Shown piece after piece: positions 7,026-42,985 of a stretch of DNA of 64,000 bases. Position 1 is the stretch's first letter. Each line of letters starts with the position of its first letter. The position numbers and the translations under genes are program-made. The stretch is from the sequence record OR352941.1. One strand, 5' to 3'. The notes below the pieces were generated by a model, which saw nothing but the letters and a program-made list of their open reading frames with translations, made no database searches and was not told the origin of the DNA. This DNA is from Escherichia phage AV111.

Positions 7026-7062
7026 ATTATTTTCCTCGGTTATTTTATTATCCAACGAGAGA

Positions 7063-7331: not shown

Positions 7332-7394
7332 GATATTTTCCTCATTTTAAGACGATAGGAAGATAATAACATGTCTTCCTATCATTGTACATTA

Positions 7395-8462: not shown

Positions 8463-8611
8463 TTTATTTTCCTCTATAGCAGATGGTTTAATCTTAACAC
8501 ATCTATTGAGGATGTAAACTGTTTTATGAAAATATTTTTTGATTTGAGAGGGGCACAAGGAGATAGTGAAGTGAAGATTCCAATGGATTATATTAGAAAT
8601 GAGATAAAGAA

Positions 8612-11848: not shown

Positions 11849-12660
11849 AATTCTAATTTATCCTTTTGAAATTCTTCGTCTAAATATGGGTTCCAACCCA
11901 TTTTAAACCTTTTGATGAAATTATCAATTCTAAATTTCGGTAAGTTTAAATCCGCAAAAATAGATGATTTACTTTTAAAATCTGGACCTAAATAATCATA
12001 TAAAATTTCTGCGTATTTTAACCATAATATATAAGTACCAGATTTAATTGCTCTCGGAGTTTTCCAAGGTTTTACACCATACATCGGATTTCCACTTCCT
12101 TTATGCCTGATAGAAGATGAAATTCCAATTTTAATTTTAGCTTCCTCTGTATGCGAAAATCCATGATGTGGATTTTCTTTCCAGTATTTTTTAGAAGCTT
12201 CTGATATTTTCTTTCTGGCTAAATTAGTATGATGCTTTCCATAAAATCCATGATTTTTACCTTTATTACGATTTCTTTTAATCATGGTTATTGATTGCTT
12301 TTTTCTAGTTTCTTTAGAAGGAGAAACACCATACGTTGTAAATTGACCATTAGCATATGCTAAATTAAAATACTCTTTATTCCATATATCTTTTTCTATA
12401 TTCTTTTGAAATTCAGCTTCAATGCTAGTTATTTGCTCATCTCCGACTAATTGAAAATATAATATTTCAACTTTCGGCGTTTCTTTCAACAGGGCTTTTT
12501 GAAATTCGGAAGATGACGAAGACGAATAATAAAATTTACCATTTTTATCAATAATATTCGTTCCGTCAAAAGTGCAATTAGTTTTACTTCCAATGTAATA
12601 ATATGGCGGGGTTTTAGCATTAATTCTATTAATAAATGATAGTTTATATACTACATTCAT
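11839..12660 (-). CDS. GIY-YIG (Seg-like) homing endonuclease with NUMOD3 repeats
   Basis: 273 aa; N-terminal VYKLSFIN...YYYIGS GIY-YIG-type motif; Lys-rich S.E.K.KIS repeats; inserted between nrdD and gene 49. Confidence 0.65.
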   Translation of the reverse strand: MNVVYKLSFINRINAKTPPYYYIGSKTNCTFDGTNIIDKNGKFYYSSSSSSEFQKALLKETPKVEILYFQLVGDEQITSIEAEFQKNIEKDIWNKEYFNLAYANGQFTTYGVSPSKETRKKQSITMIKRNRNKGKNHGFYGKHHTNLARKKISEASKKYWKENPHHGFSHTEEAKIKIGISSSIRHKGSGNPMYGVKPWKTPRAIKSGTYILWLKYAEILYDYLGPDFKSKSSIFADLNLPKFRIDNFIKRFKMGWNPYLDEEFQKDKLELCL

Positions 12661-14745: not shown

Positions 14746-15005
14746 TTAAAATATTCTCGCAGTTGATCAAATCCGCCAATGTGACTTCCGTCAGGAGCAA
14801 ACACTTGAGGCATAGTCAATCCAACTTGTGATTCACGTCCAAGCTTAACCAGAAGCTCAGTAATTTTCTCATCATCGAACACACCTTTTTCTGGCATAAC
14901 ATTAATGAATTCGAATGGCTGTTTCTTAACAGTCAGCAATCGTTTCGCATTATCACAATAAATGCATTTATGAATAGTAGAGTCATAACCGTACACTTTA
15001 AACAT
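14742..15005 (-). CDS. nrdC: thioredoxin (phage glutaredoxin)
   Basis: MFKVYGYDSTIHKCIYCDNAKRLL... matches recalled T4 NrdC; ATG 15005 with SD AAAGGA; 87 aa. Confidence 0.9.
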   Translation of the reverse strand: MFKVYGYDSTIHKCIYCDNAKRLLTVKKQPFEFINVMPEKGVFDDEKITELLVKLGRESQVGLTMPQVFAPDGSHIGGFDQLREYFK

Positions 15006-15411
15006 TATTTTTCCTTTCATCGATTAAATATGCAACACCAAATACAATACATGTAATAAAACCTGTGATACCGATAGAGAACATCAACACTGTACCAAAG
15101 AACCAAATCAAGTTATCTTTGGTAGTTTGTTTGATATCCATCTCACGAATTTCTATAGCTATCGTATCACCTTTATTCAGAAGCGTATAAAACGATGGCG
15201 ATACACGCCTGTCAAAAACTCGTCCTTGTTCATCTTTATAAACTGCAATAAATTCCAGTTTAGAATATTTTCCTGTAGATTGGCCTGAGATTAATTCTAC
15301 TACCTCCACAGGAATTACTTTAGTTTCCATGTAAGTATTCTGGCTGTTCCAAATGAATGGAATGATGGCAAAAACTAAAGCTGCAATAAAACAACGAAGG
15401 CTATATCTCAT
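14998..15411 (-). CDS. membrane protein, N- and C-terminal TM segments
   Basis: 137 aa, hydrophobic at both ends. Confidence 0.5.
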   Translation of the reverse strand: MRYSLRCFIAALVFAIIPFIWNSQNTYMETKVIPVEVVELISGQSTGKYSKLEFIAVYKDEQGRVFDRRVSPSFYTLLNKGDTIAIEIREMDIKQTTKDNLIWFFGTVLMFSIGITGFITCIVFGVAYLIDERKNNV

Positions 15412-15716: not shown

Positions 15717-16666
15717 TATAACACCTCAATGGCATTTCGTAAACCGTCCGCTTTCGCATTCAGAGCTTTTAACGATTTAGTTTGTTCTGCAATCTGGGCT
15801 TCGACTTCTTTCAGACGAGATTTGAGGTACTCACGTTCTTCGCTCAAGTTGTCAACTTTTTCTACTTTAGGTTCTTTAATAGTCTTAAGTTTATACTCGT
15901 TAGGGTTCTTCAACTTAATTCGGGTACGAGAACTATATAACATTGAACCGTTATCTTCGGATTCGTCGAACGTTTCAACAACATCCATAGTCTCTAACAA
16001 TGTAATAAGTTTATAAGACAACGAACGAATAGTTTTGTTGTGCTTATTAATTTCTTCGGCTTTCATAGTACCGAGATTACGTGAGTAGTAATAAGGAACC
16101 TGGATATCAATTGACAATGATGCGTTACCATTACCAGTTGGTTTGAATACTGCAGTAACCCAATCTTTAACATGAACTTTATTTGTACGGCCATCACCGC
16201 CAGTGAATAATTTACGAGAATGTTTAAAAAGCATATTCACTTGTTTATTGAATTCACAAGCAAATTTATCAGCAAATTTAGTTTCAGGAATGGTAGATAA
16301 CCAATCAGCCAAATGAGTCTTTTTAACATCATTAACAATAGTGAATTCAACCAAATCGGTTTTAGATGTCACAGATTTAATAAAGCTCGGTTTCATAAAG
16401 TTTTTAATGTTATCGCGAGCTACAGTAGAAGATAATAAACGAGAACGTTTGAACCATTGAAGCAGCGTCCCTAGTGAATGAGAATATGCATTTTGAGTAT
16501 CTTTACAGATATGATTTTCTTGGCCTGTGTATGTACCAAAATCGCGAAGAATACCACTTACTACATCTCGGTGTGGAACATCAAATCCTAGTGCACCAAC
16601 AGCGCGCTGGGCACGAACGTTAGCGATAAGACCGGCAAAGTATTCAATGTAATGTGAACGTGTCAT
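15716..16666 (-). CDS. hypothetical protein with C-terminal coiled coil
   Basis: 316 aa; own early promoter 16695-16724. Confidence 0.55.
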   Translation of the reverse strand: MTRSHYIEYFAGLIANVRAQRAVGALGFDVPHRDVVSGILRDFGTYTGQENHICKDTQNAYSHSLGTLLQWFKRSRLLSSTVARDNIKNFMKPSFIKSVTSKTDLVEFTIVNDVKKTHLADWLSTIPETKFADKFACEFNKQVNMLFKHSRKLFTGGDGRTNKVHVKDWVTAVFKPTGNGNASLSIDIQVPYYYSRNLGTMKAEEINKHNKTIRSLSYKLITLLETMDVVETFDESEDNGSMLYSSRTRIKLKNPNEYKLKTIKEPKVEKVDNLSEEREYLKSRLKEVEAQIAEQTKSLKALNAKADGLRNAIEVL

Positions 16667-16694
16667 AATATTTTCCTCTCGTTAAGATAGATTC

Positions 16695-16724
16695 ATTATA
16701 CTCCAACCATCCTTGGTTGTAAAC
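16695..16724 (-). promoter_or_regulatory. early promoter
   Basis: Minus GTTTACA-N17-TATAAT; spacer holds CCAACCA/TGGTTGG inverted repeat. Confidence 0.55.
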
Positions 16725-16728
16725 CGTT

Positions 16729-17685
16729 TTATGATTTTAATGCATTCATTGCGTTAAAAAGTTTAGAATACTGCAACTGGAGATTCGTTACAACACTTTG
16801 AGCATCACGAAGCTTAGCTTGTGCTTTGTCAAGTTCAACGGACAGTTGGTCTACAGTAGCCTTGATTTGGTTGTAATAATAATCTTCGGCCGGAAGAAGG
16901 TCATTAGAAACATTTAGTTTTACTGCCGACAGTTTGCACACATTTGGCAAACCTTTAAACATATCGGGTTGTGCCGGAGAATATGCGCTTAGAACCTCTG
17001 CATTACCGACTGGTGTTGCTGTGATATTGCCTTCGAACGTTGCATTTTCCTTTTTAAGATTTTGATAGTATTCAGAGTCTTTGTGCCACCATGGCGCAGG
17101 AACCTTTTTACCAATAGATACACGAGCCTGGATAGCGATATGGCCCTTATTCTTGATAATGTCGATAATATTAAGCTCACGAGAATAAATCGCTTTAATC
17201 TGGTGGATATTATCACCTAAAACTTCCAACGCTTGGTGGAATACACGAGCAACGTTATCATTCTTAGGTTTATACGTAAGAGTGAACTCATTCTCACTGA
17301 TAACCATGATTTCCAACTTATCGTAAGTATATTTCAAATGTTTCATGTTAATTGCTTGAGGACGAATACGAGAAGCAATGGCCATCAAATTGTTAAGGTT
17401 ATTTCTGAACTGTTTAGCAAAATATTGTCCGGTGCCGCCGATACAAAAATTACGAAGTTTCTGTTTGGCTAATAAACGGCTGAACTCACCATTTTTAATG
17501 AACTCTTTAACGGGTGTGTTGGTAACGCATTCAAATTGAGTAAACTTACGAGAAGTAATCCCATAATATGAACAGATTTCCTCAATCTCTTCAGGAGTCT
17601 TTACAGGCATACGGATAGGATTAGGTCCTGGAGTATATGCGTTCGAGGTAAATTCTTTAATAAGTTCTCTACGTGTAATAGCCAT
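16729..17685 (-). CDS. hypothetical protein with C-terminal coiled coil
   Basis: 318 aa; own early promoter 17712-17740. Confidence 0.55.
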   Translation of the reverse strand: MAITRRELIKEFTSNAYTPGPNPIRMPVKTPEEIEEICSYYGITSRKFTQFECVTNTPVKEFIKNGEFSRLLAKQKLRNFCIGGTGQYFAKQFRNNLNNLMAIASRIRPQAINMKHLKYTYDKLEIMVISENEFTLTYKPKNDNVARVFHQALEVLGDNIHQIKAIYSRELNIIDIIKNKGHIAIQARVSIGKKVPAPWWHKDSEYYQNLKKENATFEGNITATPVGNAEVLSAYSPAQPDMFKGLPNVCKLSAVKLNVSNDLLPAEDYYYNQIKATVDQLSVELDKAQAKLRDAQSVVTNLQLQYSKLFNAMNALKS

Positions 17686-17711
17686 TTTATATTCCTCATG
17701 TTGAAAAATTT

Positions 17712-17740
17712 ATTATACTCCAACCATCCTTGGTTGTACA
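17712..17740 (-). promoter_or_regulatory. early promoter
   Basis: Minus TGTACA-N17-TATAAT, same spacer as 16695-16724. Confidence 0.5.
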
Positions 17741-18736
17741 TCATTCCTTAAGAAGTTTTACTACCTGAATAAGATTAGCTCGTTCTGTTTTATTTTTACC
17801 GTTTAAGCCTGCTAATCGTGAGATTTCATCGTCAGTCTGCTGAATAGTTACATTAAGTTCGTTAATCAAAGCTTCAAAGTATTTGATTTGCTCAGCATGT
17901 TTTGATTCAAATTTCTGAACCGGAATAACGTCTTGGTTTAGTTCATCAATAAGGTCTTTAAGAGCATCTTCTTGGTTGATATCATATTCAACTTCTTTTA
18001 TTTCTTCAACGAGCTCGTCTTTATATCTAACGTCTTTTAGTCCTGGTGCGGGTCCCGAAATCTCTTCTTTAAGAGTACAAACATATCCAATACGATATCC
18101 AATGCCATCTCGCTTGATATCAACTTCGTCGATAAATCCACAATGTTTAAGTCCAGAGCCGATTATGTCAAAATATCCTTGACGTCGCCCTTCAAACGTT
18201 ACACGAACTACTAAGACGGTTTTACCTGCAACCTTTTGAAGCTCACATTTATAAAAGTCAGTTGAACCTGAATAACGTGGATGAGTTTTAAAGTTCATCT
18301 GACGATCTAGGCCCATTTGTAAACGTGCTGATACAGCCAGAAAACGTGTTTGGTTCTCGTTAAGATGAGCAACAATCTGTTTCAAAGGCATTTTACCCTG
18401 TTCACGACCGAACAAATCGGTACGTCCTAAATTACGCAGGATATTGTTAGAGTTAATCATCGACAGAACGTTAAGTTTATTCAGCGCGCTGAAGATTCCA
18501 TCAGCCATTGATTTTCCATAACCTTTACACGCTTTAATAAGTGCTCGCGGCAGATTAGTATAAATTTCAGACGGCATATGAAAATCAAATTTTCTAACCA
18601 ATAATTGATGAACTTGGATAGCAATTTGCTCATAATTAAGTGCTCTGCGATCGTTATGGTCTTTAAACCACACTTTAATCTGTGAAGCACATAAACCGTT
18701 AATTTCATGTTTTACCGCATCAGATGTAATGCTCAT
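17741..18736 (-). CDS. hypothetical protein with C-terminal coiled coil
   Basis: 331 aa; promoter-like element 18772-18797. Confidence 0.55.
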   Translation of the reverse strand: MSITSDAVKHEINGLCASQIKVWFKDHNDRRALNYEQIAIQVHQLLVRKFDFHMPSEIYTNLPRALIKACKGYGKSMADGIFSALNKLNVLSMINSNNILRNLGRTDLFGREQGKMPLKQIVAHLNENQTRFLAVSARLQMGLDRQMNFKTHPRYSGSTDFYKCELQKVAGKTVLVVRVTFEGRRQGYFDIIGSGLKHCGFIDEVDIKRDGIGYRIGYVCTLKEEISGPAPGLKDVRYKDELVEEIKEVEYDINQEDALKDLIDELNQDVIPVQKFESKHAEQIKYFEALINELNVTIQQTDDEISRLAGLNGKNKTERANLIQVVKLLKE

Positions 18737-18798: not shown

Positions 18799-19326
18799 TT
18801 ATGCGTGAACCGTCTTTAAACGTTCTTCAAATTTCCGAAGAGTACTAATACGTTCTGCTTTCTGTTTTGTATAGTTTGCAATACGTTCTGAAGTGAGAGC
18901 GTATCGTTCGTTTACTGTTTCTTTCATGAAGTCAGGGATTTCACGAGAAGCTTTAATTTCATCAAACTTATCGAGTACCGCCTGGTCTTCAGCGATTAAA
19001 TTTTCGTACATCTCGATATCTTTCTTGATAAACTCGATATCTTCCTGGGTTACTTTGGATAAACGAGATGCTTTATCCTTTTTGTACTGATCGTTAGTTT
19101 CACGAGACCAGAATAATGTACGTTTTTTGTTAGTGTTTTTGTAGACTTCCACAATTCCAACTGAATCGATGATAGCAATCCAATTCCAGCGAGATTTGAA
19201 AATCTGACCTCCGTCCACGGTAATCTCGTTACCATAAGCAATGTCATTAAAGAACTTACTTTGTGCTTCAGATTTAAATTTACCGTCGTTATAATTTACC
19301 AGGTTGAAAATATCTTTAGCGTTCAT
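18799..19326 (-). CDS. hypothetical protein
   Basis: 175 aa; early promoter 19354-19383. Confidence 0.5.
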   Translation of the reverse strand: MNAKDIFNLVNYNDGKFKSEAQSKFFNDIAYGNEITVDGGQIFKSRWNWIAIIDSVGIVEVYKNTNKKRTLFWSRETNDQYKKDKASRLSKVTQEDIEFIKKDIEMYENLIAEDQAVLDKFDEIKASREIPDFMKETVNERYALTSERIANYTKQKAERISTLRKFEERLKTVHA

Positions 19327-19353
19327 GTTTTACCTCCAGTAGTTGATAGGTCT

Positions 19354-19383
19354 ATAATAACATAACCATAGACCTTGTAAACA
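19354..19383 (-). promoter_or_regulatory. early promoter
   Basis: Minus GTTTACA-N17-TATTAT; AGGTCTAT/ATAGACCT inverted repeat. Confidence 0.5.
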
Positions 19384-19810: not shown

Positions 19811-20812
19811 TTATTTCAGTAAAGTTACTTCAGAGATTTCCTCCCAACCATCTTTATCAGTTGAAATAAAATCTGCTACATAAAGAGCCGTACGTAATGA
19901 TACATTGCGAAGACGAGATACGTTAGCCTTCATCCAGGACAATGCTTTATACGTTTCTGCATCCGTCAGACCACGTTTCTGCATCATGTCAGTAGATAAT
20001 ATTACATCTTCAACTCGAACCATAATCTCTTCATTAGAGTGTACTCCAAGGTCGAGATACACTGAACGAGATACTAAAGCTTGAAGGTGTGGAGCAAGTT
20101 TCGAACCCCGTTCTAACTCTTTATCGATATCAACGTTTGTAATGAAAACGATAGTACCTTCAAACTCAAATTCTTTATCAATACCCTTATCCTCGAGATA
20201 AGATGACGCAGTGCTCCAACAAACTTTGCGTTTATCTCCGGTATCTAATGCTGCTTTAAGAAGGTTCAGGATGTCCATATCTGAGAATACGTCAACGTCA
20301 TCGATTAAGAGAACGCTGTCTGCATCACGGTTGAGCCAAAGTTGTTCGTAAAGGCCAATACCAGAGATTTTACCATTAATGCTTTTGTATTTGATGAAAC
20401 CATTATCATTAGCATTATTAAGTGCTTTATCCAGAGAATACGTCTTACCAATACCAGCTGCACCTGAAATAATGAGTGAACGAATTTTGCCATCGATAAT
20501 GCCATTCGTCATCATGTTCATTACTTTAAAGCGTTTGTTGATACGAGTTTTCATATCTTCAGTGCTTTCAACAACTGCAACTGGTGATGTCTCAACTCCT
20601 TCCATTACGATGTCTGATTTGAAGACCCATACTCCACGTTCAGAACCATCAATCATAACGAAAATTTTACCATCACCTAAGTGTGAACATTCAGGATTAA
20701 GCTTTGCCGGGAACCATGTCTTTGTGGCAACATAAGAACCAGAGATTTCGTTATTACGATAGATACCTTTTTTGATTTGAACGTTGAACATTTTATTCTC
20801 CAATTTACTCAT
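19811..20812 (-). CDS. P-loop NTPase (AAA-like)
   Basis: 333 aa; Walker A ISGAAGIGKT, Walker B VLLIDDVD, sensor-like FITN. Confidence 0.6.
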   Translation of the reverse strand: MSKLENKMFNVQIKKGIYRNNEISGSYVATKTWFPAKLNPECSHLGDGKIFVMIDGSERGVWVFKSDIVMEGVETSPVAVVESTEDMKTRINKRFKVMNMMTNGIIDGKIRSLIISGAAGIGKTYSLDKALNNANDNGFIKYKSINGKISGIGLYEQLWLNRDADSVLLIDDVDVFSDMDILNLLKAALDTGDKRKVCWSTASSYLEDKGIDKEFEFEGTIVFITNVDIDKELERGSKLAPHLQALVSRSVYLDLGVHSNEEIMVRVEDVILSTDMMQKRGLTDAETYKALSWMKANVSRLRNVSLRTALYVADFISTDKDGWEEISEVTLLK

Positions 20813-20829
20813 TTCGTTTCGATAGGTCT

Positions 20830-20858
20830 ATAATAACATATCCTAAAAGCATGTACAC
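20830..20858 (-). promoter_or_regulatory. early promoter
   Basis: Minus TGTACA-N17-TATTAT, same core as 19354-19383. Confidence 0.5.
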
Positions 20859-22917: not shown

Positions 22918-23221
22918 TTAAAGTTTCAACAAAATTCACCAAATCATTCAGACAAGCATCAACCTGTTTTTCATAAAAGTCTTCGTTATCATTTACTGCA
23001 TGATAAGCTACATCATTCAAATCTGAATCGGCTTCACGTAAGTCACGGATAAGGTCCATCAATTTATTAGCTTGTTCACGGGTCATTTTACCATACTCGT
23101 TTCAATAAGATTCATTATGCCGTTTACCATGTTATAAGTAAACATTGGATAATTGTATTGTACCACAACATAAGCGATAAGCAAAAGTTTCATTTTGTTC
23201 TCCGTTTGTTTTGATAGGACT

Positions 23222-23251
23222 ACTATAACATAGTCCTACCAAGATGTAAAC
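23222..23251 (-). promoter_or_regulatory. early promoter (stem-loop cassette family)
   Basis: Minus GTTTACA-N17-TATAGT embedded in TAGGACTA...TAGTCCTA palindrome. Confidence 0.55.
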
Positions 23252-23511: not shown

Positions 23512-23647
23512 CGGCCATCTTTTTCATAGCTCTGTTAATGTCGATGTCTCCATCTTCGCAACCATGAGCATTTTCCCAATCAGATACCGCATTAGCGTAC
23601 TCTTCAATCAAAAACATTAACTTAGAAATTTTTTCTTTACGTGACAT
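23468..23647 (-). CDS. hypothetical small protein (rI.-1 position)
   Basis: ATG 23645-23647 with SD GAGGAGAA directly downstream of early promoter 23675-23702. Confidence 0.4.
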   Translation of the reverse strand: MSRKEKISKLMFLIEEYANAVSDWENAHGCEDGDIDINRAMKKMADAHTELQMYVNEIM

Positions 23648-23674
23648 AACGTTCTCCTCTAGTAAGTAAGGTTT

Positions 23675-23702
23675 ACTATAACACAACCTGAGGAGAAGTA
23701 AA
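23675..23702 (-). promoter_or_regulatory. early promoter
   Basis: Minus GTTTACT-N16-TATAGT; flanked by CTCCTC/GAGGAG inverted repeat. Confidence 0.5.
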
Positions 23703-23714
23703 CTGATAGATGCC

Positions 23715-23742
23715 AAAAAGCCCCAACCATAAGGAAGGGGCT
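23715..23742 (-). terminator. intrinsic terminator downstream of rI
   Basis: Minus AGCCCC-loop-GGGGCU followed by UUUUU. Confidence 0.55.
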
Positions 23743-26840: not shown

Positions 26841-27299
26841 CTAGATTTTAATCACTGCTTTAGAAGCTTTTCCTGGTAGTCGTTTACTGTTAATAATAGC
26901 CATTCTGCATTGAAGAGTCTTCATTTTGAATGCTGGATTTTCGCGACAAACTGTAAGTCCTAACCAAAGATTTCCGTCAGTTATTTCTAAACGGCCTGGG
27001 CGATATTCGACACCTTCGACAAAATCTTCATCAACATCTGGACGGGCCGGCATTGATAAAAATTCTGCAACTTCTTTAACATGATTTTTTACTTTACGAA
27101 ATAATTCAAAAACGTAATTCTCATCTATTTCTCTCTGGATGGCACGATCTAAGAGATGTTGAGAATACTTGATATGAAAGCCCGGTAGTCCAAGAGACTT
27201 TGCAGCATCTTTTATACCGGCATTTATTTTGCGGAACTCCGTTTCAAAGATTCGACGGAGTTTATTACGGCGGATAAAAACGTCTGAATTGATAGTCAT
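26841..27299 (-). CDS. regB: RegB site-specific endoribonuclease
   Basis: 152 aa; MTINSDVFIRRNKLRR...QCRMAIINSKRLPGKASKAVIK matches recalled T4 RegB. Confidence 0.9.
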   Translation of the reverse strand: MTINSDVFIRRNKLRRIFETEFRKINAGIKDAAKSLGLPGFHIKYSQHLLDRAIQREIDENYVFELFRKVKNHVKEVAEFLSMPARPDVDEDFVEGVEYRPGRLEITDGNLWLGLTVCRENPAFKMKTLQCRMAIINSKRLPGKASKAVIKI

Positions 27300-27327
27300 T
27301 TTGATTTCTCCTCTAGTTGACAGGTCT

Positions 27328-27355
27328 ATAGTAACACAACTAGAGGAGAAGTAAA
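27328..27355 (-). promoter_or_regulatory. early promoter upstream of regB
   Basis: Minus GTTTACT-N16-TACTAT; 9-bp inverted repeat CTCCTCTAG/CTAGAGGAG pairs spacer with the SD. Confidence 0.5.
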
Positions 27356-27360
27356 CTACT

Positions 27361-29060: not shown

Positions 29061-29390
29061 TTATACTCGAGGCTTTTGAGCTTGTTTGGTATTGGATTCC
29101 CATGCAGCTTTGGTAATTTTGTTAGCGGCATAACCAAAGGCATTAGATAGAACACCTTTAGAGTTGAATACATCCAATCCAATAAGTACACCGGCTGCGT
29201 TAAATTTAGGAGCAAAGTATGCATTAGTTTTAGAAAGAGCTTTTTTCAATTCAGGGTCTTGAACCAAACCATCAAAAACGCCTTTACTATTTACTTTATA
29301 TGTTACTTTGGGATTTTTACCTTCTTCGATAGCAGCTTTCTGTTCCGCAGATAATGTAACTTCAGTGATAAACTCTTGATACGTTTTCAT
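29061..29390 (-). CDS. internal-protein-like (capsid-targeting leader)
   Basis: 109 aa; N-terminal MKTYQEFITE leader. Confidence 0.6.
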   Translation of the reverse strand: MKTYQEFITEVTLSAEQKAAIEEGKNPKVTYKVNSKGVFDGLVQDPELKKALSKTNAYFAPKFNAAGVLIGLDVFNSKGVLSNAFGYAANKITKAAWESNTKQAQKPRV

Positions 29391-29453
29391 TTTTGTTTCC
29401 TTGTTTATTTTGATAGAGTAATTATACCATATTAATACTTAAGCGTAAACAAT

Positions 29454-29714
29454 TTAAGCTTTACCGCCAGAAATAATTCCGAAGTTGTTAAAATCGTATC
29501 CAATATCGTCAACATCTACTTTAGGGCTTGCTACAACATAAGCAATTTCACTACGTTTTGCATAGGTGTTGATTTCTTTACCATCGCCACCTAAGAAAGA
29601 ATACCCATTACGTTTTAATGAGCCAAAGTCTTCCGCATCACCAATGAAAGCTTTAACTTTAAATTTAGGACCTTTGGCATCTGCTTCAATGATAAATTCT
29701 TGATACATTTTCAT
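29454..29714 (-). CDS. internal-protein-like (capsid-targeting leader)
   Basis: 86 aa; N-terminal MKMYQEFIIE leader. Confidence 0.6.
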   Translation of the reverse strand: MKMYQEFIIEADAKGPKFKVKAFIGDAEDFGSLKRNGYSFLGGDGKEINTYAKRSEIAYVVASPKVDVDDIGYDFNNFGIISGGKA

Positions 29715-29720
29715 TTTTCC

Positions 29721-30134
29721 TTAGTAAATTGATTTGCCATAATATTTATACCAAGACGGCCGTTGAGCAATTTTTTCATCTAAGCGTGCTTGACTTATCG
29801 CAATGGACGCTTCGGACGGGTCATAATTATTACGAAATTCGGCAGGGATGTCGGAAATATCCTGGACTGTCGTGTCCTTGATTTTGAAACCACGTTTCAA
29901 GCATTCAGCGATTAGCTCGATTTGACGTAAACGTAAAAATTCGAGTTTGTCGTAAAAGAATGTTACGTGACCTGTGCCTAAGATAAATGTTGGAGAGATT
30001 TTAAAATCCTTTACACGTTTACCGTTTTGAACATGTTTACGGACTGCACCAAATACGCGTGGTAATTCACGATACTCAGCCATAAGATGTTGGTCGGACA
30101 GTTCAGAAACAAGTGTTAAATTGATACGAGTCAT
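29721..30134 (-). CDS. denV: endonuclease V (pyrimidine-dimer DNA glycosylase)
   Basis: [31 protein letters not shown]... matches recalled T4 DenV; ATG 30132-30134; early promoter 30162-30190. Confidence 0.9.
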
Positions 30135-30161
30135 AATTTCCTCCAAGTAGTTGATGAATGT

Positions 30162-30190
30162 ATAGTATCAAAACCCTTGGAGGAAGTAAA
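30162..30190 (-). promoter_or_regulatory. early promoter upstream of denV
   Basis: Minus GTTTACT-N17-TACTAT; CCTCCAAG/CTTGGAGG inverted repeat overlapping the SD. Confidence 0.5.
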
Positions 30191-30192
30191 CA

Positions 30193-32853: not shown

Positions 32854-33159
32854 TTATTTTCCTCGACATTCTTTAATGAAATTTTCTAGATTGGTAGATT
32901 CAATAGCTTTTTTACGAGCTTCTGCGTGTTCTTCTTCAGACAATTTACATTTATAATTGACCCAGACGTTATGGTCGAAACTAGTCGTGGCATATAATAA
33001 CAATGCTCCAACGAATAGCAAAAACGGCGATAAGAATACAAAACCAGGAACACCATCCATACTGTAAGCCTTTTGTAATACTGCAACAGAAAGAGTTGCG
33101 TAAAAAGGTGATGCAAGTATTGTTAAAAGACCAATTCGATTGGTTTCTGTTAATTTCAT
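32854..33159 (-). CDS. membrane protein with C-terminal ENFIKECR tail
   Basis: 101 aa; two TM segments; SD GAGGAGA; early promoter 33188-33217. Confidence 0.55.
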   Translation of the reverse strand: MKLTETNRIGLLTILASPFYATLSVAVLQKAYSMDGVPGFVFLSPFLLFVGALLLYATTSFDHNVWVNYKCKLSEEEHAEARKKAIESTNLENFIKECRGK

Positions 33160-33187
33160 AATATTCTCCTCATGTTTTAATAGGACT

Positions 33188-33217
33188 ACTATAACATAGT
33201 CCTATAATTGTGTAAAC
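33188..33217 (-). promoter_or_regulatory. early promoter (stem-loop cassette family)
   Basis: Minus GTTTACA-N17-TATAGT in TAGGACTA...TAGTCCTA palindrome, then SD GAGGAGA and ATG 33159. Confidence 0.55.
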
Positions 33218-33229
33218 AGTTTTGTGAAG

Positions 33230-34186
33230 TTATTTGAAAGGTTTTACCATATGGAAATTTTGTTTGAAACGTTTGACGTAATCGTCATGTCCTAAGCTTT
33301 GGTACATACTTACTACTTTGCTGTAGTTTTCCCAGGCGTATTCACGGAACCAACCGGAGGTGATGCTTGTGCAGACTTTTTCCAATGCCATTATGAAACT
33401 GGCTTCAGGGTTAATTTCAAAGTTATTAGGAATCTGAGAACGTTCTAATGCTAGTACACATGATTCTTCATATACACCGGCCAATTTGACCATTTCTGGT
33501 AATGATTCGAACTTCTCGCGTGAGGTCATGACTTCAGAACCATCTTTCATGTAAAATGTATACGCTGGACGGTCAGTTAGTGCAATGGCTTCATGGATAG
33601 TATCATGGTCATATGTATAGATGTCATCTTTAAAGAACGCACTTTTAGAAGTGTCAAGAACTGGGTGAGCATAATTCAAGGTTTCTTTCTGGCGTTTCAG
33701 CATAATTTCAGTAAGTTCATCGTTCAGTGTAACACCTTTACCACGAAGATACTGAATATGGTTCATAGTCTTTAAAAAGAATGGATTATTTTTCTTGAAA
33801 CGATGAGACATCTTAATTGCAAGACATATCTCAGGAGTTGCCCAGTAAAACCCGTTCAAACGGTCTTTAGTCAAATTTTTCTTGGCGTATTTTAAAAGGT
33901 CATAAGAAGACGTGAAATCTTCAGGAGTGAGTTCACCGACTAATTCACGGACATTAGTGATTGCCGGAACAATATATGCTTCAAAATGAGTTTCGCGTCC
34001 ATTATGGAAGCATTTGAAAACTTGGACATCAGGGTTATCTTGGTGAACATATACACCCATCATTTGATTTTTGAATGCATTCCAAGAACATTGGTCCGCA
34101 ATAAAGTCCCAATCACTATTTTTAATAGCGCTAGAATCAATAAGACCGTGATAGTGAAGTGCACGAGAACCAATAACTAACATCAT
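33230..34186 (-). CDS. hypothetical protein with N-terminal NTase-like motif
   Basis: 318 aa; N-terminus VIGSRALHYHGLIDSSAIKNSDWDF resembles the GS...D.D nucleotidyltransferase signature. Confidence 0.5.
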   Translation of the reverse strand: MMLVIGSRALHYHGLIDSSAIKNSDWDFIADQCSWNAFKNQMMGVYVHQDNPDVQVFKCFHNGRETHFEAYIVPAITNVRELVGELTPEDFTSSYDLLKYAKKNLTKDRLNGFYWATPEICLAIKMSHRFKKNNPFFLKTMNHIQYLRGKGVTLNDELTEIMLKRQKETLNYAHPVLDTSKSAFFKDDIYTYDHDTIHEAIALTDRPAYTFYMKDGSEVMTSREKFESLPEMVKLAGVYEESCVLALERSQIPNNFEINPEASFIMALEKVCTSITSGWFREYAWENYSKVVSMYQSLGHDDYVKRFKQNFHMVKPFK

Positions 34187-34214: not shown

Positions 34215-34466
34215 TTAAATTTCACGACATGCGATATTATATTCATCCCAGAGGTCATCATGTGAAGCCTCTACCAATGGAACGATTGTACCGTTTATGT
34301 CTTCATTATAAGGGCAAATTGTACAGTGCGCATCTTCGAATCGGATGCCTTTGTGTTCAGATTTTTTATAACGCATATCGAATATCTTTGCAAACTTTTC
34401 ACGAGTAATGGTTTTAGCAACTACTTTGGTTCCGATACTTTCGTAATAAATCATTGTGGACTCCAT
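34215..34466 (-). CDS. hypothetical protein
   Basis: 83 aa ORF downstream of early promoter 34483-34512. Confidence 0.5.
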   Translation of the reverse strand: MESTMIYYESIGTKVVAKTITREKFAKIFDMRYKKSEHKGIRFEDAHCTICPYNEDINGTIVPLVEASHDDLWDEYNIACREI

Positions 34467-34482
34467 TTGTTTTGATAGGACT

Positions 34483-34512
34483 ACTATAACATAGCCCTAT
34501 CTTGTTGTAAAC
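34483..34512 (-). promoter_or_regulatory. early promoter (stem-loop cassette family)
   Basis: Near-identical copy of the 33188 element. Confidence 0.55.
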
Positions 34513-35311: not shown

Positions 35312-35667
35312 TTTCTACATTCCTTAATAAAGTTTTCGATTGTTTCATTTTCACGTTTAGCTAGAAGTTCATTATAACTAATCATTTGAGAAGCGTAAAT
35401 ATTTTTATTTTTCTTGTTATGGTTTATAAAATCGTAGTAAAAATAGACTACGGTACAAAAGGATGCGATGGATGCAAAGGCTTGGGTATACCGTAAGTCC
35501 TGCCATTGGTCTGTGAATCCACCAGTGTTCCCTATAAATCCTAACACAACGCCGTCAATAAGAAATCCAACTAATCCAAAGGCAAATCCCATGCCAATAC
35601 TCATAATAAAAATTAGAATGTTCTCACCAAGAGAAGGCCATACGGTTAAGAGTTGAGGCTTTTGCAT
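35308..35667 (-). CDS. membrane protein with C-terminal ENFIKECRK tail
   Basis: 119 aa, multiple TM segments. Confidence 0.5.
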   Translation of the reverse strand: MQKPQLLTVWPSLGENILIFIMSIGMGFAFGLVGFLIDGVVLGFIGNTGGFTDQWQDLRYTQAFASIASFCTVVYFYYDFINHNKKNKNIYASQMISYNELLAKRENETIENFIKECRK

Positions 35668-36661: not shown

Positions 36662-37255
36662 TTATTTCAAAGAGTTAATATATTCTTGTACATCAGCAGA
36701 AGTGGTTTCAACACCAGCTGGAGTGCCATTGAACGTTTCAACACGAGTCAGAGTATCTTCGATATCAACCTTAGTCAGTGCAGCGATTTCAATTACATCA
36801 TCGGCCGTAGAGATACCAAGGGCATTAGCTGCTCGAGTTTCACGAATGTATTCGAGTTTGATTGCCAGATTCTGACGAGCATCATCAAGTTCAACCACCT
36901 TACGAGCAATTTCAATTCGCATAGCGGCATACCCATCAGCTTTTGTATTAAGTTGTTCGGCAGTTCGACGATACAGAAGACCAAGCTTAGCATGCATAGT
37001 AACATCTTGTCCTTCAGCCAGGAGCTTACGAATTTCACGTTCCTTAGAAGCGGCTTGCTTGTTCTTTTCATTAACAAGTTCGCGAATACGTTTTTCTTCA
37101 TTAATAGATTTAACAGAAGCCGTTTTTAGTTCTTTGATTTGGGTAATCAACTTATCTGCAGCTGCGTTATACTGTTCTTCGACAGTCAGATTTTTAGCCA
37201 TAGCAGTACCCAGTTTAGTGCGGATGAATTCAACAAGTTTCTTCAGTGTGTTCAT
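36662..37255 (-). CDS. coiled-coil protein
   Basis: ATG at 37253-37255 with SD AAAGGT; track start at 37270 is TTG; charged coiled-coil throughout. Confidence 0.5.
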
Positions 37256-37296
37256 ATTATTACCTTTCAATTGGTGGTTTATTATCCAACGAGAGC

Positions 37297-37325
37297 ATTA
37301 TACTCTGCTCTCAAGAGTTTGTAAA
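37297..37325 (-). promoter_or_regulatory. early promoter
   Basis: Minus TTTACA-N17-TATAAT with GAGAGC/GCTCTC inverted repeat; paralog of 7063-7091. Confidence 0.5.
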
Positions 37326-37553
37326 TTATTTTTTAATCAAATTGACATAAAACTTGGCGTCTTCGGGGTGCATGCCTTCGCAGTATTCTTCAACCATGAA
37401 CTTCTTAACAGCTTCATAAGGACCACTCAGATTAAGCTCAGTTGTCCAGAACTTGGAATCTTGGGCTGAATCGATACGAACTTCAGGGTGTCGGTTGCGA
37501 ATAACTTCTTCGGTGTATTCATAATCAACGACATCAATACTAACTTTAGCCAT
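37326..37553 (-). CDS. hypothetical acidic protein
   Basis: 75 aa; early promoter 37583-37611. Confidence 0.5.
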   Translation of the reverse strand: MAKVSIDVVDYEYTEEVIRNRHPEVRIDSAQDSKFWTTELNLSGPYEAVKKFMVEEYCEGMHPEDAKFYVNLIKK

Positions 37554-37582
37554 TTTGTTTCTCCTCTTGATTTGATGTGATT

Positions 37583-37611
37583 ACTATAACATAAACGTAC
37601 TTAGATGTAAA
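37583..37611 (-). promoter_or_regulatory. early promoter
   Basis: Minus TTTACA-N17-TATAGT. Confidence 0.5.
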
Positions 37612-37765
37612 TTATTTCAACGTCACCTTTAGCTGCTTTATAACCTTCAGCCCAAGATACAACAGAGTTTTTATCTGAGGATTCAAATTCAGGCATTGGA
37701 CTTTCACCAATATTCACACAGTATGTTTCTTCATTTTCATCAAACCAAATAATTAAAGTAGTCAT
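37601..37765 (-). CDS. hypothetical small protein (53 aa, below ORF-track cutoff)
   Basis: Hand translation MTTLIIWFDENEETYCVNIGESPMPEFESSDKNSVVSWAEGYKAAKGDVEIIYI; SD GAGGAG; early promoter 37796-37824. Confidence 0.4.
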   Translation of the reverse strand: MTTLIIWFDENEETYCVNIGESPMPEFESSDKNSVVSWAEGYKAAKGDVEIIYI

Positions 37766-37795
37766 TTTGTTTACTCCTCTGTAGTTGATAAGTCT

Positions 37796-37824
37796 ATAGT
37801 ATCACCATCCTTGGGGCTTGTACA
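37796..37824 (-). promoter_or_regulatory. early promoter
   Basis: Minus TGTACA-N17-TACTAT. Confidence 0.5.
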
Positions 37825-37832
37825 TCATTATT

Positions 37833-38138
37833 TTATTTTTTCCAACTCAACAACTTGTAGTGCCCTTCATTCGTACGAGGTTTATCCCAAGAAATACTAA
37901 TATATGATTCGCTGTCAATAGAAGTCGCCGGGTTTTTCTCTACCGTAAGACCTTCACTTTCCAGCCACTCAATAGTATTTGCGCATAAATCTGAAGAACA
38001 CCTAATCGGAAACCGGCAAGATTTTTCACCTTTAGCTGCAGCGTTATACATCTTTTCTAAAATACGCTTTTGCACGTTTTTAAAAATAGTTTCAGCAGAT
38101 TCTTCAGATTTTTTATTCAGTTCAGTGTAAAGACTCAT
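37833..38138 (-). CDS. hypothetical protein
   Basis: 101 aa; early promoter 38167-38194. Confidence 0.5.
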   Translation of the reverse strand: MSLYTELNKKSEESAETIFKNVQKRILEKMYNAAAKGEKSCRFPIRCSSDLCANTIEWLESEGLTVEKNPATSIDSESYISISWDKPRTNEGHYKLLSWKK

Positions 38139-38166
38139 AACATTTTCCTCTGTGGTTGATAAGTCT

Positions 38167-38194
38167 ATAGTATCATGTCCTTAGAAGAAGTAAA
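38167..38194 (-). promoter_or_regulatory. early promoter
   Basis: Minus GTTTACT-N16-TACTAT. Confidence 0.5.
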
Positions 38195-38228
38195 CATCTT
38201 TATGAAATATTTTTATGCCCTAGATACC

Positions 38229-38255
38229 AAAAAGCCCCAACCTTTCGGAAGGGGC
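38229..38255 (-). terminator. intrinsic terminator
   Basis: Minus GCCCC-UUCCGAAAGG-UUGGGGC then UUUUU; near-identical to 38763-38790. Confidence 0.55.
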
Positions 38256-38762: not shown

Positions 38763-38790
38763 TTATTATGCCAAAAAGCCCCGACCTTTC
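38763..38790 (-). terminator. intrinsic terminator downstream of the structured-RNA region
   Basis: Minus AGCCCC-UUCCGAAAGGUC-GGGGCU then UUUUU. Confidence 0.55.
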
Positions 38791-39110
38791 GGAAGGGGCT
38801 AAGCCTTGCGGCAACCTTGTCGGGGTTCCACCTGCTAAGGCAAGTGTTTGTACGAAACGCCGGGATTCGAACCCGGTTATTAAGTAGTTGACGCTACTCA
38901 ATATTTTTAAAAGGCCATATCTCGACCATATCCGAACGTTCCGTCAAAAACGCTACTCGGCTTACGGCAAAGATATTTCCTCGAATCGATAATTCGGTGC
39001 GCCGTTTCTGCTGTGATGTAAGGGGATATTAACGAATCATAAAGATTTATTAAGACCAGTCCTTACTCAGGGAACATCAGTCCGACGACTTACCGGTAGC
39101 GACCCGGCTT
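38791..39110 (-). ncRNA. putative structured stable RNA region with tRNA-like acceptor/T-arm element (38851-38941)
   Basis: No ORF on either strand; perfect T-arm CCGGG-UUCGAAU-CCCGG at 38858-38874 flanked by pairing CGGAACG/CGUUUCG; further hairpins; bounded by tRNA-Arg region upstream and terminator 38763-38790 downstream. Confidence 0.35.
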
Positions 39111-39474: not shown

Positions 39475-39550
39475 TGGTGCCTCTAGAAAGATTTGAACTC
39501 TCACCATTAACCTTAGAATGATTATATGCTATCCATTACACTATAGAGGC
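39475..39550 (-). tRNA. tRNA-Arg (anticodon UCU), CCA encoded
   Basis: Hand-folded 76 nt cloverleaf: acceptor GCCUCUA/UAGAGGC, D-stem GUGU/GCAU, anticodon stem UAAUC/GGUUA with loop AUUCUAA, T-arm GAGAG-UUCAAAU-CUUUC. Confidence 0.75.
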
Positions 39551-40201
39551 AATTAAATTATTTACAATATCTTCTTTATAAACTTCAGCATAATGAAGTT
39601 CATATATTTCCCATCCTAATGATTTTATAATATCATGGCGTTCTTTATAATAAGGGGCCAAAATCTTTTTCTTAGGATTGGAGTAATGTTGGTTTCCATT
39701 AACTTCAATAATAATCTTTTTATCTATTAAAGCAATATCCGTGCAATACGCTCGGTTTTTAACCGGTTGGTATTCTTCAATAAATGAAATTCCATTTTCT
39801 ATTAATTTAGATTTCAAAAATTCACAAGGCACAGATTTAAATTTTGTATTTTTCTTCCAAGGATGTTTATCGGGGTTTTCATTCAACCATTTTTTCCGAG
39901 CATTAGATATTTTTATTCTAGCTTCCTCAGAGTGTTCTCTACCTAATGAAGCGGCTGACAATTTTTGTCTAGTCTCTTCCGAAATTACTACAGGAACACC
40001 AGTCTTTTTAGATACAACATACTGGTTTAAATTACCTGAAGCTATACGTGCTTTATTCATTGCTGCAATGGCTGATTTAGAACTTTCTTTATACAATTCC
40101 AATTTAGGGTTGGATTTACACCATCTAGTGTGGTTAGCCATCCATCCTTTAGGTTTATTAGAAATATCAAATTCCATATTACAATGTTTACAAATGCTCA
40201 T
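39536..40201 (-). CDS. homing-endonuclease-like protein: Zn finger + NUMOD3-like repeats + DUF559/Vsr-like PD-(D/E)XK nuclease domain
   Basis: ATG at 40199-40201 (track start is TTG 40207); CKHC...WC; SEETRQKLSAASLG and SEEARIKISNARK; C-terminal IDKKIIIEVNGNQH...ERHDIIKSLGWEI; sits between tRNA genes. Confidence 0.6.
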   Translation of the reverse strand: MSICKHCNMEFDISNKPKGWMANHTRWCKSNPKLELYKESSKSAIAAMNKARIASGNLNQYVVSKKTGVPVVISEETRQKLSAASLGREHSEEARIKISNARKKWLNENPDKHPWKKNTKFKSVPCEFLKSKLIENGISFIEEYQPVKNRAYCTDIALIDKKIIIEVNGNQHYSNPKKKILAPYYKERHDIIKSLGWEIYELHYAEVYKEDIVNNLIASIV

Positions 40202-40275
40202 TACCAATTATCTCCTATAAAATATAGGAGTATTTATTATTTGGATAGAGCACTTAATTTACTTCGTTTAAATTA

Positions 40276-40347
40276 CTGGCGCACTTTGACTCGAACCAAG
40301 ATAAAGGAGTTAACAGCTCCCCGTAATAACCTTTATACGATGCACCA
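40276..40347 (-). tRNA. candidate tRNA-Asn (anticodon GUU), CCA not encoded
   Basis: Hand-folded 72 nt: acceptor UGGUGCA/UGCGCCA (one GU), anticodon stem GGGAG/CUCCU with loop CUGUUAA, T-loop UUCGAGU; one G-A mismatch in T-stem, 3-bp D-stem. Confidence 0.4.
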
Positions 40348-40353
40348 TTTGTT

Positions 40354-40428
40354 TGGTGACCCTGGCTGGTTTCGATCCAGCTACCTATCAGTTATGAGCT
40401 GACAGCTCTCCCATTGAGCTACAGGGCC
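40354..40428 (-). tRNA. tRNA with CAU anticodon (elongator Met or Ile2), CCA encoded
   Basis: Hand-folded 75 nt: acceptor GGCCCUG/CAGGGUC, D-arm GCUC-AAUGGGA-GAGC, anticodon loop CUCAUAA, T-stem GCUGG/CCAGC. Confidence 0.7.
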
Positions 40429-41686: not shown

Positions 41687-41886
41687 CTTTTTGCAATTTT
41701 ATCCATAACGATAGCGATTAAACCGATTAGAAATGCTACTACCAATGAGATAGAATTTTCAGTTGTTGTCAGTAGTCCGCAAATGAATCCTACAAACATC
41801 GAAAAACTAAAAGCCATTGAAGCAATTACTACAGCAACATTACGAATCAGTTCAGCGCGTTTCATTTTATTTCTCCATTTACTCAT
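41683..41886 (-). CDS. small membrane protein
   Basis: 67 aa, two TM segments; early promoter 41903-41932. Confidence 0.5.
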   Translation of the reverse strand: MSKWRNKMKRAELIRNVAVVIASMAFSFSMFVGFICGLLTTTENSISLVVAFLIGLIAIVMDKIAKR

Positions 41887-41902
41887 TTGTTTTGATAGGA
41901 CT

Positions 41903-41932
41903 ACTATAACATAATCCTATCAGCATGTAAAC
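41903..41932 (-). promoter_or_regulatory. early promoter (stem-loop cassette family)
   Basis: Minus GTTTACA-N17-TATAGT in TAGGACTA...TAGGATTA near-palindrome. Confidence 0.55.
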
Positions 41933-41935
41933 TAC

Positions 41936-42223
41936 TTACAGAAGAGTTTTTGCAATAATTTTAAGCTGAGCTACAGAAATATGCTTAGCTTTAAACAGTG
42001 CAGTCTCTTCAGCCGGAGAGATAACAATAGTAGCGCCGTCTTTCTTAGCAGACCATCCATCCCCTAAGTAAACAGTACCTTTTACTTCTTCGCCGTCAAC
42101 CAGACTAATCATTGGTTTACCCTCACGTCCTTTATTTGTTTTAATAACTTCGGAAGTAAGGGTTGCTTCGGTCAGAGTAGAAACGTTAGCATCAGGTGAT
42201 ATAAATTCTTTATAGGTTTTCAT
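41936..42223 (-). CDS. ipI: internal protein I (injected anti-restriction protein)
   Basis: 95 aa as in T4 IPI; MKTYKEFISP leader; adjacent to 57B as in T4; early promoter 42258-42287. Confidence 0.7.
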   Translation of the reverse strand: MKTYKEFISPDANVSTLTEATLTSEVIKTNKGREGKPMISLVDGEEVKGTVYLGDGWSAKKDGATIVISPAEETALFKAKHISVAQLKIIAKTLL

Positions 42224-42242
42224 TTTATTTCCTTGAGGTCGT

Positions 42243-42985
<743 letters not shown>

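Follow-up and report, generated by a model that had tools for sequence, protein, structure and literature searches.

The stretch analysed here, called the window below, comprises 64,000 nucleotides (nt) from Escherichia phage AV111 (sequence record OR352941.1), and the elements under study are short minus-strand cassettes, each carrying an early promoter, the spacer of which can in most of them pair either across the -10 region or with the following gene's ribosome-binding site. By its sequence, the window is a segment of a Mosigvirus (RB69-like T4-type) genome and covers a hyperplastic early region with minus-strand transcription. It is 96-97% identical to Mosigvirus genomes and to many coliphages, and is collinear with PhAPEC2 through 55, nrdD, nrdC.x, tk, regB, ipIII, denV, e, the tRNAs, ipI, 57B and gene 1. 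Regular-expression and weight-matrix scans of the window detect about 20 early-type promoters in intergenic DNA; they all share the strand of the genes, and a Shine-Dalgarno (SD) sequence and an ATG follow in every case. In a generic sigma-70 scan the cassette promoters, with TG before the -10, are top-ranked. A cassette spans about 65-90 nt between two small genes and has a conserved start region, CCTATCAA; the 25 nt upstream of the promoters are modestly enriched in A+T (70%, with 40% A, vs 63% and 32% in the window).

Four of these cassettes, located in the nrdC-tk-e-tRNA-ipI region before open reading frames (ORFs) of 36-101 amino acids (aa), are nearly identical to each other. A 24-nt core, TAGGACTATGTTATAGTAGTCCTA, of which no occurrence is expected in 100 shuffles, is found on the minus strand exactly at 23215-23238 and 33181-33204, and with one mismatch at 34476-34499 and 41896-41919; a repeat finder places the four copies in families D1 and D2. 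On the gene strand each copy reads G-TTTACA, six variable bases, TAGGACTA, TGT, TATAGT overlapping TAGTCCTA, and (T/A)TCAAAAC, after which come an A-rich leader, a GGAG-type SD and the ATG. The promoter is thus of the form TTTACA-N17-TATAGT with TGn, and the arms TAGGACTA (-23 to -16) and TAGTCCTA (-7 to +1) enclose the extended -10 (TGn) between them. In the following lines, and in those further below, the energies and z scores are those of the RNA that would be made by reading through the cassette from upstream.

33157-33217, minus strand: cassette 33188; G+TTTACA (-35) at 33211-33217, TGT + TATAGT (-10) at 33188-33196, 5' arm TAGGACTA at 33197-33204, 3' arm TAGTCCTA at 33181-33188, SD GAGGAG, ATG at 33157-33159 of a 101-aa ORF (32854-33159, minus strand); -15.0 kcal/mol, z -3.6.
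23191-23251, minus strand: near-identical copy; arms at 23231-23238 and 23215-23222, stem prolonged to 13 bp (TTGGTAGGACTAT/GTAGTCCTATCAA) if G.U pairs are included, ATG at 23191-23193 of a 36-aa ORF; -18.0 kcal/mol, z -4.2.
34452-34512, minus strand: near-identical copy (34483); 5' arm TAGGGCTA, whose single difference yields a G.U pair, 3' arm at 34476-34483, ATG at 34452-34454 of a 79-aa ORF; -16.1 kcal/mol, z -3.6.
41863-41932, minus strand: near-identical copy (41903); 5' arm TAGGATTA, whose difference yields a U.G pair, 3' arm at 41896-41903, ATG at 41863-41865 of a 60-aa Trna.4-like ORF; -15.4 kcal/mol, z -3.7.

A sequence-only reading of the window had claimed that about 45 bp around these four promoters are nearly identical and that the -10 region lies within a palindrome, and both statements are borne out: over the 45 nt from GTTTACA to CAAAACA the copies share 39-41/45 positions (37-38/39 without the six variable spacer bases), the 40-nt flanks on either side are at background (6-19/40), and TAGGACTA/TAGTCCTA bracket the extended -10 in all four. 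Its motif, GTTTACA-N8-palindrome, stands except for the spacing, since 6 nt separate GTTTACA from TAGGACTA. The same reading held that conservation exceeds what sigma-70 recognition needs, in agreement with the 60-95% conservation found among 20 window promoters at -20/-19 (G) and at -3 to +3 (CCTATC). Only two 5'-arm variants have been found opposite an unchanged TAGTCCTA, and both give G.U pairs; they are present at several loci.

Stems of other sequence occupy the same position around the -10 elsewhere in the window, and are designated class I together with the four copies. They are listed here with their interrupted or stemless relatives and with a promoter pair of another subclass.

42221-42287, minus strand: class I cassette (42258); stem AGGATGAT/ATCATCCT, drives the IPI gene 41936-42223; -13.2 kcal/mol, z -2.4.
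19324-19382, minus strand: class I cassette (19354); stem AGGTCTAT(G)/(T)ATAGACCT with a 16-nt spacer, upstream of a 175-aa ORF (MNAK...).
7329-7392, minus strand: class I cassette (7363); 12-bp stem ATGATAGGAAGA/TCTTCCTATCGT, with -10-flanking arms TAGGAAGA/TCTTCCTA; -14.9 kcal/mol, z -4.1; upstream boundary of a 79-aa ORF that PhAPEC2 lacks.
7023-7092, minus strand: class I cassette (7063); GAGAGA/TCTCTC, repeat family D10.
37253-37326, minus strand: class I cassette (37297); GAGAGC/GCTCTC, a paralogue of 7023-7092 with 90% identity (D10).
20789-20858, minus strand: interrupted-stem cassette (20830); TAGG..CCTA with a bulge.
37551-37825, minus strand: cassette pair with -7 positions 37583 and 37796 and no convincing stem, flanking a 54-aa ORF (37601-37765).
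16664-17741, minus strand: promoter pair of another promoter-early-stem-loop (PeSL) subclass, sites 16695-16723 and 17712-17740; hairpin AACCA AGGA TGGTT (D5).

The five related versions that the sequence-only reading had listed are therefore to be divided: clean palindromes flanking the -10 exist at 19354 and 42258 only, that at 20830 is interrupted, 37796 has no convincing stem, and at 38167 it is the spacer that pairs with the SD. Further -10-flanking stems, absent from that reading, are those at 7363, 7063 and 37297. In the promoters at 16695 and 17712, which precede ORFs of about 318 aa, the 5-bp hairpin is wholly within the spacer, that is, at another stem position than in the four copies.

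In five further cassettes, designated class II, an anti-SD sequence (TCTCC or TCCTCC) stands at the start of the spacer, directly after the -35, and pairs with the gene's own SD.

27297-27356, minus strand: class II, regB (27328); spacer TTCTCCTCTAGTTG pairs with the SD-containing leader CAACTAGAGGAGAA; -21.6 kcal/mol, z -5.1, own leader 0 kcal/mol.
30132-30191, minus strand: class II, denV (30162); TTCCTCCAAG pairs with CTTGGAGGAA; -19.1 kcal/mol, z -4.1.
23645-23703, minus strand: class II (23675); TTCTCCTC/GAGGAGAA, with a true terminator ahead of it at 23707-23741.
8460-8519, minus strand: class II; TCCTC..AGATG / CATCT..GAGGA.
38136-38195, minus strand: weak class II (38167); UUCUUCU/AGAGGAA with one G.U.

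The question of whether this complementarity is selected was addressed in 57 sources, namely 55 T4-like loci from IMG/VR (anchored on two window proteins), the PhAPEC2 locus and the window, with promoters called without use of the arm positions. The first survey set held 111 unique promoters, drawn from the window and 30 other loci (31 T4-like sources in all); 28% of them had, between spacer and positions -9 to +7, a stem of at least 8, vs 0.4% when spacers were cross-paired and 0.8% after shuffling. The full set of 245 promoters contains 59 distinct class I stems at the -10-flanking position and 25 distinct class II stems. Covariation in class I was scored on all TATAGT promoters of the T4-like loci (34), aligned without gaps and with no selection for a stem: 64.3% of helix cells are paired, vs 55.1% in shuffled and 34-47% in slid alignments, double-change cells number 70 vs 37.9 after shuffling, and the covariation score of 0.293 (vs 0.160) is reached by none of 500 shuffles. 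Class II behaves likewise. Across the loci, 29 distinct promoters combine a spacer CTCC with a GGAG in the SD, and in these the pairing runs 4.0 nt past the CTCC/GGAG anchor, vs 0.9 nt when cross-paired; 77.8% of cells are paired vs 62.4% after shuffling, with a score of 0.370 vs 0.136 and again 0/500 shuffles. This alignment was anchored on CTCC/GGAG in place of RNAalifold, which found no consensus structure in 16 class II cassettes, among them denV and regB orthologues, because the pairing register shifts between sequences. Two scans gave too few matches for statistics: one of IMG/VR with both arms free plus TCAAAAC (1 match), and one of metagenomes with the 3' arm fixed (7 loci, 10 cassettes).

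Comparison of individual loci points in the same direction. Positional orthologues carry different stems; the PhAPEC2 orthologue of 7023-7092 has, like the paralogue at 37297, GAGAGC/GCTCTC, so that both arms are changed. The stem class, I or II, can also change from one orthologue of a gene to another, as in the case of the cassette at 19324-19382, whose orthologues in other genera have an anti-SD stem instead, and denV orthologues reach the same SD closure through three different 5' arms. It is complementarity, and not sequence, that is conserved at the stem position, and this complementarity is under selection.

Two explanations of the fourfold repeat have to be measured against this result. 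It could be argued that a dimeric protein of phage or host recognizes the palindrome TAGGACTA-N8-TAGTCCTA as its operator and so controls a subset of early promoters, for example in early-promoter shut-off, a mechanism described as not completely understood (PMC3014915), and the occurrence of exactly the same palindrome over the -10 of four promoters would fit such a role. However, at least six other stem sequences take this position in the same genome and dozens do so in related phages, the stem varies in length from 7 to 15 bp around a constant loop of 6-8 nt, and the centres of the half-sites are separated by 16 bp, about 1.5 helical turns, which places them on opposite faces of the helix. 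It could also be proposed that the similarity reflects only recent promoter duplication or gene conversion, with a functionless palindrome, as the identity of 39-41/45 within unrelated flanks and the fact that cassettes do recombine would suggest; complementarity nevertheless recurs with many unrelated stems, above the cross-paired, shuffled and slid controls. Since complementarity is kept rather than sequence, both a single protein operator and mere duplication are ruled out by this evidence. The operator hypothesis was rejected on stem diversity and half-site geometry and is in our judgement extremely unlikely, and duplication alone is very unlikely.

Three other candidates were tried. Overlap of the cassettes with MotA boxes or late promoters showed no fit on inspection by eye, and with Rfam covariance models only three tRNAs in the window reach the gathering score, no family being found for the cassettes. 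A third class of pairing, between the -10/discriminator and the SD-AUG, has examples of 10-12 bp in denV orthologues but is not enriched overall (4.5% vs 3.6%). Those examples are found in some genera, in L125 and L126 near 14850-15010, in L130 near 14370 and in L161 near 1600, where the SD and AUG pair with the -10/discriminator, for instance as TATAGTAGCCTT/GAGGCTACTATG over 12 bp; this is a third mode of SD hiding, with its arm upstream of the start site.

The position of the arms suggests in which RNA the stem could form. Host sigma-70 RNA polymerase is expected to initiate about 7 nt past the -10, because this is the established sigma-70 geometry, and the early-promoter consensus of RB49 has been confirmed by 5' mapping (PMC1524935). 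The 5' arm is encoded by the spacer, and the 3' arm by the stretch from the last -10 bases to about +4. As the 5' arms of both classes lie at -30 to -16, upstream of the predicted start site, a transcript initiated at the cassette itself would be without the 5' arm and have an open leader, and only RNA that reads through from upstream would fold. As computed, the read-through RNAs of the cassettes have energies of -13 to -22 kcal/mol (z -2 to -5), those of class I forming stems of 11-13 bp with -13 to -18 kcal/mol (z -2 to -4), vs 0 kcal/mol for the cassettes' own leaders.

The consequence for the SD is predicted to differ between the classes. In class I, the probability that the SD is unpaired is 0.57 in read-through RNA, 0.66 in the own transcript and 0.43 when the promoter part is shuffled (p = 5e-4). 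The four copies, in which the SD is outside the helix, give 0.86/0.89, 0.51/0.51, 0.31/0.31 and 0.91/0.95 (read-through/own). In class II, the corresponding values are 0.10, 0.72 and 0.31; at 27328, 30162 and 23675 the SD has a probability of 0.00 of being unpaired in read-through RNA vs 0.37-0.61, and for regB the comparison is 0.00 vs 0.58 in the own transcript. We propose that the stem is most likely an insulator between neighbouring expression units that acts in read-through RNA. Class I would be its 'open' setting, in which the RNA copy of the promoter is locked up and the SD stays as free as in the own transcript, and class II its 'closed' setting, in which the spacer anti-SD would shut the SD, so that translation would occur only from the gene's own early promoter. 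That the stem does act in read-through RNA is, on present evidence, an even bet.

An alternative role in the same read-through RNA is termination: the stem-loop could terminate or attenuate transcription by RNA polymerase coming from the gene upstream, so that one cassette would end one unit and start the next. This was the original proposal for the stems of PeSL cassettes, and the stem of RB49 PeSL211/210 cut expression of a downstream lacZ about as much as the rrnB T1 terminator (Arbiol et al., PMC2839356); moreover, the class I cassettes of the window have no separate terminator upstream. The RB49 stem tested in that work is, however, of the polyG/polyC kind (PMC2839356), whereas the window stems are A/U-rich (TAGGACTA) and are followed by UCAAAACAAA (UCAAAAC), with no U-tract. 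A terminator scan flagged no cassette stem, although it found GC-rich hairpins with a T-run elsewhere in the region (D7), and two class II cassettes have a true terminator in addition to their stem. Since the U-tract is missing, the cassette hairpins are probably not intrinsic terminators, as judged from sequence, and the termination hypothesis is unlikely. What they share with Rho-independent terminators is to be intergenic hairpins; they differ in having neither a G+C-rich stem nor a U-tract. The true intrinsic terminators of the region, two of which stand directly upstream of class II cassettes, are the following.

23707-23741, minus strand: intrinsic terminator, G+C-rich hairpin and T-run of the GCCCCTTCCGAAAGGTTGGGGCTTTTTGG type (D7).
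38221-38255, minus strand: intrinsic terminator of the same type (D7).
38765-38799, minus strand: intrinsic terminator of the same type (D7).

The composite architecture as a whole corresponds to a known system. PeSL cassettes were described in RB49/phi1 (Arbiol et al. 2010, PMC2839356), to which T4/PST and KVP40/nt-1 were added later (Comeau et al. 2014, PMC4122927). They are defined by a sigma-70-like early promoter that has A/T-rich DNA upstream, and by a stem-loop, an SD and a start codon, and they are intergenic, lie in hyperplastic regions and are tied to indels between close relatives (PMC2839356; PMC4122927); their stem is most often between the -35 and -10 elements or over the -10 (PMC2839356). 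The sequence-only reading had proposed a match to such cassettes, and every PeSL feature that can be read from sequence is present in those of the window: the A/T-rich stretch, -35 and -10 at 17-nt spacing, a stem-loop between the two elements or over the -10, with G-T pairs in the stems, SD and ATG, as well as the intergenic, hyperplastic location before small ORFs mostly of unknown function, and the flanking indels and replacements. They differ in belonging to the Mosigvirus/RB69 type, outside the three published phage pairs, in a -35 of TTTACA instead of TTGACA, in A/U-rich (TAGGACTA and others) instead of polyG/polyC stems, and, with respect to T4/PST, in having their stems around the -10 and not upstream of the promoter. 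They also have no U-tract after the stem, which makes it doubtful that they terminate transcription as one RB49 stem was shown to do. The repeats are very probably PeSL-type early-promoter cassettes. They are further members of that group, to which this analysis makes modest additions, namely the evidence from stem covariation and the anti-SD variant.

Two other precedents are informative. T4 genes e, soc, 49 and I-TevI have SD-sequestering hairpins with an internal promoter (PMC3014915). There, too, the helix has the promoter inside or ahead of its 5' strand, so that long transcripts fold and promoter-proximal ones do not, and the class II cassettes of the window (regB, denV and others) would sequester the SD in like manner. 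The T4 promoters are, however, late (gp55) ones and translation is delayed, whereas the window promoters are early sigma-70 ones and translation would be confined to the early period; in addition, the helix of the four class I copies excludes the SD. In RB69, 57 early promoters have been predicted, many of them before novel ORFs (Nolan et al. 2006, PMC1524935). They are of the same class as those of the window, with GTTTAC at the -35 and C preferred at -3 to -1, but inverted repeats, stem-loops and hairpins are unmentioned in that study (PMC1524935). The literature searched, whose coverage is incomplete, gave no description of such stems in RB69-type phages or of an anti-SD at early promoters, and no 5'/3'-end maps of T4-like phages were found in it.

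A role in recombination is suggested by comparison of the window with PhAPEC2 (L121), an IMG/VR relative (L122 and L153) and four further Mosigvirus genomes (L177-L180). Alignment ends fall within 15 nt of a cassette in 8/40 cases vs 3.8% for random positions, a null that has to be read with care, as viable whole-gene indels must end intergenically, where cassettes fill much of the space. Three single-ORF indels have the same form, in which two cassettes bound the ORF in one genome and one chimeric cassette stands in the other. At 20830, PhAPEC2 and L153 have an extra 72-aa ORF between two cassettes and the window has one chimera, with the crossover in ATGTTATTATAGACCTATC; at 37583/37796, it is the window that has the extra ORF, of 54 aa, between two cassettes, and in PhAPEC2 their place is taken by a single chimera, joined within the SD-ATG leader. 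The extra ORF at 7063/7363, of 79 aa, again belongs to the window, with the junction at the -35. In one metagenomic relative, two near-identical cassettes lying 331 bp apart enclose a small ORF. Similarly, the IPI gene (ORF 41936-42223, minus strand; T4 IPI nuclease-inhibitor family, PF11634, E = 6e-50) is replaced in three relatives (L122, L177, L179), the start of the replacement and the -35 edge of cassette 41903 being 1-3 nt apart. The replacement extends from 41932-41934 to 42168 (L177) or 42201 (L122, L179), and its far end lies in the internal-protein targeting sequence, 42201 being in the start of the conserved N-terminal MKTYxEFI. The sequence-only reading had named an absence of breakpoints at these elements in relatives as grounds for giving it up; three indels and the start of the IPI replacement are in fact located at cassettes, which speaks for its interpretation.

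The best of 50,697 phage records covers 93% of 36.5-42.5 kb, a stretch that holds six cassettes, in 4 pieces, and relatives have about 1.1-1.2 kb extra at 38150-38226, near the weak class II cassette 38136-38195. Copies 34452-34512 and 33157-33217 (spacing 1295) enclose a 1,295-bp module of two ORFs (34215-34454 and 33230-34186); cassettes 34483/33188, 1,295 bp apart, and 37796/37583, 213 bp apart, are candidate substrates for the release of mini-circles, a feature ascribed to PeSL cassettes that recombine with a neighbouring one. The shared 45-60 bp of the cassettes would serve as homology patches, at which recombination could add, delete or replace single ORFs together with their expression signals, and we consider such a role likely.

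The involvement of the cassettes in crossovers, on the other hand, also bears on a reading that places the action of the inverted repeat in DNA, where it could be extruded as a hairpin or cruciform and either modulate promoter opening or, by being cut or causing stalling, create a recombination hot spot. Under this reading a perfect palindrome could be maintained by templated quasi-palindrome correction, and not by selection on RNA, and templated quasi-palindrome mutation is established in T4. In its favour, many independent stems have their arms placed exactly around the extended -10, crossovers lie inside cassettes, and one RB49 crossover was mapped to the stem loop (PMC2839356). Nor is the excess of G.T over A.C significant: internal sense-strand G.T and A.C mismatches number 13 vs 6 in class I (p = 0.17) and 5 vs 3 in class II, and in smaller samples the strand asymmetry is 6 vs 3 with mismatch types alike and 8 vs 8 with stem ends included. 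A count of 11 G.T to 0 A.C was discarded, as its selection tolerated G.U and was hence biased. Against a function in DNA, the class II pairing of spacer and SD, at the same position, makes sense only in RNA, the two 5'-arm variants opposite TAGTCCTA are both of the G.U kind and recur at several loci, and the exchange of one stem class for the other among orthologous genes suggests that some RNA fold is needed. A DNA-level role is for these reasons rather unlikely.

The mismatch counts are one of several points that weigh against an RNA-level insulator at module boundaries. About 5 of the 20 window promoters have no convincing stem, and any stable local hairpin would trivially give part of the insulating effect of class I. 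The start sites, promoter activity and strength, read-through, action at the RNA level and the insulating effect are all predictions that we infer from the arrangement of the motifs. As to recombination, beside the choice of null noted above, there is no breakpoint at 33188 or 34483 in the two relatives that span them (L121, L122). With these points taken into account, the best overall explanation is that the repeats are PeSL-type composite early-promoter cassettes, in which the stem is an insulator and the shared sequence a recombination patch, and we give it a probability of roughly 70%.

The PeSL architecture reaches beyond the three published pairs to RB69-like phages and many other T4-like contigs, with different stems, and the junctions show that single genes, including the anti-restriction gene IPI, are moved with their promoter. 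The cassettes mark natural module boundaries, of use in phage engineering and annotation, and the anti-SD variant at regB and denV offers a testable means of restricting translation to RNAs started at the early promoter of the gene itself. A broader generalization, which we put forward tentatively and hold to be somewhat less probable than its negation, is that the promoter-embedded stem is a general T4-type device that sorts transcripts by their start point, with open and closed states, in at least five genera. If so, the nuclease genes regB and denV would be translated, under the closed state, during the first minutes alone, the time at which early promoters fire; in long transcripts their GGAG would also be protected against RegB, because RegB does not cut structured sites. 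The principle of e, soc, 49 and I-TevI, based on late promoters, would thereby be extended to early promoters.

Several minor observations were made in the same comparisons. The MKTYxEFI peptide of the IPI gene (42201-42226) recurs at 29368-29393 and 29692-29717 (D11), before other internal-protein-like ORFs. In this part of the window, 29360-29429 and 29684-29753 form a 70-nt direct repeat, 76% identical and with 324 bp spacing, at the starts of two adjacent internal-protein-like ORFs, and PhAPEC2 lacks 139 bp in the region 29360-29753. At 35371-35399 (minus strand), a promoter-like TTTACG-N17-TATAAT lies inside coding sequence; the L122 alignment breaks exactly at 35399, and a 252-bp window-only segment adjoins this break.

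Two ORFs of the window are probable or possible endonuclease genes. That at 11839-12660 (minus strand), of 273 aa and with a NUMOD3 motif (E = 1e-8), lies between nrdD and gene 49 and is missing in PhAPEC2, L152 and L153, so that it is probably a homing-endonuclease insertion. The second, of 223 aa with a TTG start (39536-40207, minus strand), has weak RAP/DUF559/NUMOD3 matches and may be a Seg-like endonuclease; it splits the tRNA cluster, between tRNA-Arg (39475-39550) and tRNA-Asn/Met (40276-40428), and in phage moha tRNA-Arg is directly followed by tRNA-Met.

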